Shown here: piece by piece, positions 37,888 through 38,403 of the stretch
Numbering within the stretch: the first letter of the stretch is position 1
How the letters are laid out: every line of letters starts with the position of its first letter
Assembly: GCA_963781885.1 (NCBI GenBank)
Contig: CAWAHW010000004.1
Location: forward strand, 195,940-259,939
DNA: 64,000 nucleotides
Source of the DNA: an uncultured Spirochaetota bacterium
GTDB taxonomy: Bacteria > Spirochaetota > Spirochaetia > SZUA-6 > Fen-1364
Direction: 5' to 3'
The notes under the pieces: model-generated
Seen by the model: the letters and a program-made list of their open reading frames with translations, nothing else
Told to the model about the DNA's origin: nothing
Databases searched by the model: none
Position numbers and translations under genes: made by a program

Positions 37888-38157
37888 TCAAATCCCGTCT
37901 TTGTACACATCCCTGCGATGCCCGATTTTGAGAACAAGCACCGACGAGTTACTGAGGCGGTAAATTATCCGATAGTCGCCAACACGGACGCGGTACAAGT
38001 TAAGGCGGGCTTCCAGTTTTACAGCTCCCCTTGGCCGGGGATATGTTCCCAAGGCTTCCATGGCGTCGAGAATCCTTATTTGTGCTGAACGAGGAAGCCG
38101 CCTGAGTTGCCTCCGCGCCGACGGAGCAACGACTACCCCATAAGTTACGCGGGAACC
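37888..38157 (-). CDS. RelE/ParE-family toxin, no canonical start codon; in frame with the upstream antitoxin and separated only by its TGA
   Basis: Translation after the antitoxin stop is GSRVTYGVVVAPSARRQLRRLPRSAQIRILDAMEALGTYPRPRGAVKLEARLNLYRVRVGDYRIIYRL...LKIGHRRDVYKDGI, with family-typical core motifs. The only in-frame ATG (38061) would remove the N-terminal third. Confidence 0.55.
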   Translation of the reverse strand, partial: GSRVTYGVVVAPSARRQLRRLPRSAQIRILDAMEALGTYPRPRGAVKLEARLNLYRVRVGDYRIIYRLSNSSVLVLKIGHRRDVYKDGI

Positions 38158-38403
38158 TCAGAGCCCCAGTTCTTTCCTGAGCTGTGCAGCGGAGATCGTA
38201 CCCTTTCGGGCTGCTTCTCTGAGTGCCTTTTTTGCATCCTCGATATCCTTCTTGTCCTCGATCGCTTCCAGCGTCCTGACGTCCTCAAGAGGAACGATCG
38301 CGGCGACCCGTTTGCCCCGGCGAGTGAGGATCACCCTCTCTTTGCCGAAAGCGGCGCGATTGATCGCTTCGGAAAAACTCTCTCGCAATTCCACCGTGCT
38401 CAT
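38158..38403 (-). CDS. Phd/YefM-family antitoxin
   Basis: MSTVELRESFSEAINRAAFGKERVILTRRGKRVAAIVPLED is the classic Phd/YefM N-terminus. RBS GGAGG upstream. Confidence 0.65.
   Translation of the reverse strand: MSTVELRESFSEAINRAAFGKERVILTRRGKRVAAIVPLEDVRTLEAIEDKKDIEDAKKALREAARKGTISAAQLRKELGL

Follow-up and report, generated by a model that had tools for sequence, protein, structure and literature searches.

A RelE-family toxin gene with GTA at its start position beside an intact Phd/YefM-type antitoxin gene in an uncultured Spirochaetota bacterium

In the genome of an uncultured Spirochaetota bacterium, a reading frame for a toxin of the RelE/ParE kind lies directly behind an antitoxin gene. 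The two are in the same frame with a TGA codon between them, and no canonical start codon precedes the conserved part of the toxin. Is this a toxin gene that has lost its start, a toxin made by an unusual route such as readthrough of the UGA codon, or an ordinary gene with an error in its sequence? We examined this question in a stretch of 64,000 nucleotides of this genome (hereafter, the window) and in the related toxin-antitoxin (TA) cassettes of other genomes and metagenomes. The features of the locus are listed in Table 1.

Layout of the locus

The minus strand reads ...GAA CTG GGG CTC TGA(38160-38158) GGT TCC CGC GTA(38148-38146) ACT TAT GGG GTA GTC GTT GCT CCG..., and the frame past the antitoxin TGA is open until the TGA at 37890-37888. 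The antitoxin gene (38415-38158) and the toxin frame (38148-37888) are adjacent and co-oriented, with the antitoxin first and a 9-nt gap between them, which is the layout of a TA module. The first-pass annotation had described the two as being in frame and parted by the TGA alone, with a GTA codon at about 38143. They are indeed in frame, but the TGA is accompanied by the 9-nt spacer, and the GTA codon is found at 38148-38146.

A canonical start with a ribosome-binding site (RBS) ahead of the conserved domain is lacking, as GTA occupies the position 38148-38146. When the stretch from the TGA to the domain was searched, neither ATG, GTG or TTG nor ATT, ATC, ATA or CTG was found. The earliest canonical start in the toxin frame is the ATG at 38061-38059, which is codon 30 and opens a reading frame of 57 aa. 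This bears out two claims made from the sequence at first sight, namely that none of ATG, GTG and TTG precedes the conserved region of the toxin (there is none ahead of Met30) and that starting at the first in-frame ATG would delete about 30 residues.

Table 1. Coordinates of the features of the TA locus in the window
Feature	Position	Strand	Evidence or remark
Phd/YefM-type antitoxin gene, RelB-like in its C-terminal part	38158..38415	-	Intact; PF02604, NCBIfam phd_fam
GAGG, Shine-Dalgarno-like, candidate RBS of the toxin	38156..38159	-	Within invariant TGAGG; putative role as RBS
Intergenic spacer GGT TCC CGC, 9 nt, in frame with both genes	38149..38157	-	Length fixed, third triplet varies
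GTA, putative defective initiation codon of the toxin	38146..38148	-	GTG in 23/24 and ATG in 1/24 orthologues
Tandem substitution GG>AA (CC>TT on the plus strand)	38145..38146	-	Window versus 24 loci
Reading frame of the RelE-family toxin, 86 codons and the stop TGA (37890-37888)	37888..38148	-	PF05016 over full length, homologues, AF2, PDB folds
57-aa reading frame that opens at residue 30, the first ATG in frame	37888..38061	-	Open reading frame list; public annotation P0007
TA cassette common to relatives, about 620-640 bp	37858..38496	-	blastn, 10 orthologous loci
Palindrome CCAGCTTCCTTAAATGTACATTTGGGGAAGTTGG centred on GTAC, candidate operator/promoter	38428..38461	-	Inverted repeat, conserved core

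The toxin frame

The 89 codons that follow the antitoxin stop matched the Pfam model ParE_toxin (PF05016) with an E value of 1.1e-11 and a score of 45.6 bits, the curated cut-off being 23. The match extended over profile positions 1-89 of 89 with residues 8-85, which accounts for the complete domain; the first-pass observation that the residues after the antitoxin stop align with the RelE/ParE N-terminus was correct. There is no frameshift and no internal stop. Residues R53, R55, G57, R60, Y63, R78 and Y82, which are invariant among 39 homologues, and H77, which is conserved in at least 90% of them, are all kept in the window, as is the C-terminal KIGHRRDVY motif. A C-terminus with His, Arg and Tyr residues is typical of RelE-like RNases, and the window toxin retains one.

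The AF2 model of the full-length frame had a pLDDT of 93.4, with strand b1 at residues 4-7, helix a1 at residues 9-16, helix a2 at residues 20-35, and four further strands. In a Foldseek search of the PDB, the model matched 2khe, 3g5o, 9g12 and 1wmi with TM scores of 0.78-0.81 and a probability of 1.00. Model and matches agree in the compact b-a-a-b-b-b(-b) fold of solved RelE structures. All five PDB matches by sequence were RelE or RelE-like, and ParE chains ranked 11th and lower in Foldseek with TM scores of 0.62-0.69. Judged by homology of sequence and predicted structure, the product would be a RelE-type toxin and not a ParE. Its function, by analogy, would be that of a ribosome-dependent endonuclease that cleaves mRNA.

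Relaxed selection on the window toxin was considered as well. Pairwise dN/dS values between it and its relatives were 0.18-0.31, and those among intact copies were 0.18-0.58, at a dS of about 0.3-0.5, where the comparison has low power. No signal of relaxation was seen, and this test has little power at such a divergence.

The start codon in related cassettes

We read 24 related cassettes as DNA, representing about 9 sequence types with 87-89% DNA identity to the window. They came from JGI, ENA and Logan metagenomes and from two Spirochaetota MAGs (L001 and L002; L003 and L004, from Spirochaetaceae and Spirochaetota MAGs; L163-L168; L169-L182), and the close loci had been gathered from the contigs encoding the proteins P0002-P0006, P0009, P0129 and P0130. 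The best matches among genome contigs were Spirochaetaceae and Spirochaetota MAGs, with 81% and 76%. A scan of metagenomes with a degenerate pattern gave, among the matches listed, only relatives of 52% identity or less.

In every one of the 24 cassettes, the TGA and the 9 nt behind it lead to GTG (23 loci) or ATG (one locus, L167), and GCN TAT GG(G/T) comes next. The first-pass annotation had proposed to ask whether orthologues carry GTG where the window has GTA, and had named a normal start at this position in orthologues as the finding that speaks against the more exotic readings. A GTG or ATG stands at exactly that codon in all 24, and by that yardstick the exotic readings are refuted.

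Only the window, when compared with the 24 loci, carries GTA ACT at toxin codons 1 and 2 (the exact allele string is TGAGGTTCCCGCGTAACTTATGGGGTAGTC). Relative to all the orthologues, GTG GCY has become GTA ACT by a tandem GG>AA substitution, which removes the start and, through the first base of codon 2 (GCY to ACT), replaces Ala2 by Thr. The two adjacent changes probably arose in one mutational event. The spacer of the window has an additional change, TTC to TCC, and the divergence across the cassette is about 12%. Since a neighbouring base and the spacer have also changed, the picture is one of ordinary divergence and not of a single aberrant base.

When the 86-codon frame was used as the query of a protein search, the result agreed with the DNA comparison. 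The homologues P0001-P0006 are 86-88 aa long and 80-87% identical, and their N-terminus, V/M-A-Y-G-V, falls exactly at the GTA of the window. In profile matches to two RelE proteins of solved structure, 2khe and 1wmi, residue 1 of each falls at this same position, which fixes the true N-terminus of the toxin there. The GTA allele was found in one genome only, as a cluster with a single member (P0007) on one contig of 808,799 bp. P0007 is the public annotation of the window's own genome, 57 aa long and 100% identical. Two loci, L170 and L173, were tried as toxin-less relatives and rejected; their gene table is incomplete, and their DNA shows an intact toxin with GTG.

The in-frame TGA junction

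The sequence 5′-GAGG at 38159-38156 overlaps the antitoxin stop, lies 7 nt before the first codon of the toxin, and is retained in the window. A GAGG at 7 nt ahead of a first codon is a normal Shine-Dalgarno arrangement. Both the TGAGG and the 9-nt length of the gap from stop to toxin were invariant in the 24 orthologous cassettes. With the GAGG overlapping the stop and standing 7 nt from the start, the gap is fixed at 9 nt, and the two genes are thus kept in frame. As read from the sequence, the in-frame TGA junction would be a by-product of RBS spacing, with no special role. Two such genes would be in frame by chance in 1 case out of 3, and here the layout is common to all 24 relatives, each with a start of its own.

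The spacer does not behave like coding sequence. Its third triplet is CTC, GGC, CGC or GCC among the relatives (Leu, Gly, Arg or Ala), and this non-synonymous variation shows that the spacer is free of coding constraint. The TGA itself was kept in all 24 relatives.

TGA as a sense codon, as in translation tables 4 and 25, was rejected. It is the commonest stop in the window (GC content 62%), ending 22 of 43 long open reading frames, and in the neighbouring ADH-like gene the Pfam profile was matched to its end, just before a TGA. The genetic code is standard.

A SECIS-like or readthrough-stimulating structure was likewise sought and rejected. The 86 nt around and after the UGA folded with a z score of -1.07, and 31 of 200 shuffled sequences folded as well as the native one; an Rfam search gave no match at E≤1. 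When antitoxin-toxin fusions were sought by length among the 120 toxin homologues listed, none exceeded 109 aa. What would be expected of readthrough or recoding, namely a stimulatory structure, coding constraint at the junction, and fused homologues, was therefore not seen. Among the explanations first offered for this locus, loss of the start and a base error are left standing. The fusion of antitoxin and toxin by UGA readthrough or recoding is not supported, given the same layout in relatives with normal starts, the non-coding spacer, and the use of TGA as the main stop. The in-frame TGA junction should not be taken as a sign of recoding.

The antitoxin gene and the upstream palindrome

The antitoxin is 85 aa long from GTG 38415, or 81 aa from an alternative ATG at 38403, and ends at the TGA at 38160-38158. 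It matched Pfam PhdYeFM_antitox (PF02604, E 2.9e-11) and NCBIfam phd_fam (E 2.2e-07), with weak RelB matches on residues 44-81. Its orthologues have ATG or GTG at the position of 38415, and the protein is about 95% identical. A GGAGG (38429-38425) lies 9 nt upstream of the start.

The palindrome at 38428-38461 (inverted repeat I1) has 18-nt arms that are 83% complementary. Its core, CTTCCTTAAATGTACATT, did not vary across 7 aligned cassettes, whereas the positions around it did. The palindrome is a plausible candidate operator or promoter, through which the antitoxin, alone or in the TA complex, would regulate its own expression. Both an intact antitoxin gene and an operator-like palindrome upstream of it are thus present. 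A promoter scan upstream of the antitoxin gave no sigma-70 match.

The window antitoxin carries four conservative substitutions, G13S, R35K, K47R and K66R, at positions that are invariant in all the other cassettes. These could reflect a slightly relaxed constraint after silencing of the toxin, or an outlying lineage.

Context of the cassette

In blastn comparisons, the 10 orthologous loci showed 87-89% identity to the window only within 37858-38496, and their flanks were unrelated. In the window, the cassette sits between the ADH-like gene and an HNH_2 gene. Since homology is confined to the cassette and the flanks are unrelated, the cassette has moved between contexts. This unit of about 620 bp is either mobile or was re-inserted many times. 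In one lineage of relatives (L168-L173, L177, L179 and L181; for example, L169, 1501-2742), the RelBE cassette is directly followed by a MazE/PemK (MazEF) pair and a TetR-family gene, so that a small TA cluster results.

Directly downstream of the TA cassette in the window, at 36644-37543 on the minus strand, is a gene for a protein of about 300 aa with an HNH_2 endonuclease domain (PF13391). The 361-aa reading frame listed for it begins at GTG 37726, which is probably too far upstream; GTG 37543, with AAGAGG ahead of it, looks like the real start. The intergenic region between the cassette and this gene contains, at 37634-37724, two tandem copies of a GC-rich unit of about 43 nt, 81% identical and spaced by 48 nt. 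Their core, GCGACCGARTAGGGAGCGCG, has no further copy in the window, and the unit gave no Rfam match. Farther away, at 45186-48317 on the minus strand, a reading frame of 1044 aa gave no Pfam match at E≤1e-4.

Other damaged toxin genes of the family

We examined 178 RelE-family loci with an alignable N-terminus, the window included. No usable N-terminus, that is, no canonical start before residue 8, was found in 4 of the 178: the window and 3 of the 177 others (L132, L047 and L072). In L132, CGC is found where ATG is expected (about 2490-2500). In L047 (about 2975-3000) and L072 (about 2990-3015), the ATG is followed by a 1-nt frameshift. A further locus, L004, has a 1-nt deletion in the middle of the toxin (about 3150-3170), giving 69 aa. 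The lesions of these four loci may represent real decay or consensus errors of long reads. In either case, damage to toxin genes of the RelE family is no rarity among public sequences. Bacterial populations abound in orphan antitoxins and in TA pairs that are undergoing decay (PMC7192599).

The 57-aa reading frame and the gene calls

Public annotation of the locus gives a 57-aa protein that starts at ATG 38061. That protein has two points in its favour, namely that it is the sole reading frame with a canonical start and is what gene callers predict (P0007), and that the same call has been made for relatives (P0009). The P0009 call comes from L001 (1135-1308) and L002 (576-749), and both loci carry an upstream GTG with a Shine-Dalgarno motif. 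As the upstream GTG is present in both, the call reflects the preference of the gene caller for ATG, and P0009 was rejected as a second start-less relative. The 57-aa calls are a systematic mis-annotation of the subfamily by callers that prefer ATG.

The properties of the 57-aa product argue against it in the same direction. The fold is a compact single domain, and this product would be missing strand b1, helix a1 and the greater part of helix a2. The Met30 at which it would start is Ile or Val in relatives. No good Shine-Dalgarno sequence precedes ATG 38061, the nearest candidate being AAGGA at 11 nt upstream. We regard it as scarcely credible that the 57-aa protein is the functional product. 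The public call of a 57-aa 'toxin' is wrong, and the annotation should instead give a pseudogene of a RelE-family toxin, damaged at its start codon, beside an intact Phd/YefM antitoxin gene.

Weighing the explanations

With a probability of roughly three in four, we attribute the present state of the locus to a real and recent loss of the start codon, by which the toxin is silenced while antitoxin and operator remain intact. On this reading, a chromosomal type II TA cassette of the RelBE kind, with a Phd/YefM-fold antitoxin, a RelE-fold toxin and an upstream palindromic operator, would have had the GTG of its toxin mutated to GTA in one genome, as part of the tandem GG>AA that also turned Ala2 into Thr. 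Having no usable start, the toxin would not be made at meaningful levels. The result would be a translationally silenced toxin pseudogene next to an intact and probably still expressed antitoxin gene, which would amount to early decay of the TA pair or to a de facto orphan antitoxin. Since the RBS, the frame and the catalytic C-terminus are intact, the lesion would be recent. The sequences directly show the codon difference, its confinement to the window among the cassettes compared, the family of the toxin and the soundness of the rest of its gene. From these we infer that GTA does not initiate here, that the antitoxin is expressed, and that the change is real and did not arise in assembly. 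The undecayed body of the toxin fits a very recent loss, and it fits equally a toxin that is made in another way or an assembly error. These two alternatives are weighed below.

An error of sequencing or assembly would mean that the genome truly has GTG (GCY) at 38148-38143 and that the TA pair is intact and ordinary. The GTA allele is known from a single assembly, the toxin is otherwise undamaged and its dN/dS is normal, and other lesions in the family (L004, L047 and L072) come from MAGs built from long reads, which may plausibly contain consensus errors. An error of this kind, however, would have to strike the one critical base in a stretch that diverges anyway, and two adjacent bases differ from every relative, as does a third one within the spacer. 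Long reads typically err by indels in homopolymers, not by tandem transitions. At about 12% real divergence, a true substitution is a priori far likelier than an error in a polished assembly. We therefore consider such an error unlikely. A toxin that is still made at a low functional level without a canonical start is less probable again. Ribosomes that end the antitoxin at the UGA might restart at the GUA 9 nt downstream, aided by the GAGG, or basal readthrough of the UGA might yield an antitoxin-linker-toxin fusion of about 175 aa; either route would leave a down-tuned TA module. The retained Shine-Dalgarno motif, spacing and whole toxin frame are in keeping with the former, and the in-frame arrangement of the genes with the latter. 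In E. coli, many non-canonical codons initiate measurably, at 0.01-3% of the level of AUG (bioRxiv 10.1101/063800); the codons measured one by one in the sensitive assays of that study did not include GUA. The junction evidence weighs against both routes. The in-frame layout is shared by relatives with their own GTG or ATG and is thus no adaptation to start loss, the spacer triplets change non-synonymously, TGA is the main stop codon, and neither a significant RNA structure beyond the UGA nor, among the 120 best toxin homologues, a fused one was found. From first principles, two bases of GUA do not pair with the initiator anticodon, so that the yield from GUA is expected to be about 1e-4 to 1e-3 of that of a normal start, and by either route the antitoxin would be in vast excess. 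That GUA reinitiation or UGA readthrough still supplies a trickle of active RelE, in a strongly down-tuned TA module with toxin synthesis strictly coupled to antitoxin translation, seems to us very improbable. Should reinitiation hold, the locus would offer a case from nature of coupled initiation at a codon that is not near-cognate.

We therefore return to real loss of the start codon as the preferred reading. The locus would then be a snapshot of the first step in the decay of a TA pair, with the toxin silenced first and the antitoxin kept, and would have little import beyond annotation.

Comparison with known systems

The closest systems are RelBE2 of M. tuberculosis (Rv2865-Rv2866, 3g5o), RelE of Thermus thermophilus (2khe) and aRelE-aRelB of Pyrococcus horikoshii (1wmi). 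The window cassette resembles these RelBE modules in being a bicistron with the antitoxin first (about 85 plus 86 codons), in the RelE fold of the predicted toxin (TM 0.78-0.81) with profile matches over its full length and a C-terminal G-H-R-x-x-V-Y, in the Phd/YefM N-terminal domain of the antitoxin, and in the upstream palindrome that is expected for autoregulation. It differs from them in that GTA stands in place of the start of the toxin, so that no translatable full-length toxin is encoded. With the gyrase poisons of the ParE type (ParDE; 5cw7, 6x0a), the toxin shares the fold of the superfamily and the Pfam model PF05016, but its best matches in sequence and structure are RelE proteins.

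Programmed UGA readthrough and selenocysteine recoding also involve a UGA between two coding regions in the same frame. In contrast to such cases, the present locus has no downstream structure, an unconstrained spacer and no fused homologues among those listed, and relatives with the same junction possess an independent start for the toxin. Another parallel is found in degenerating TA loci and orphan antitoxins, such as those of Klebsiella pneumoniae (PMC7192599), where an intact antitoxin gene likewise stands beside a toxin gene that cannot normally be expressed. Compared with the catalogued examples, the present locus would represent an unusually early stage, with the start-codon lesion as the sole defect.
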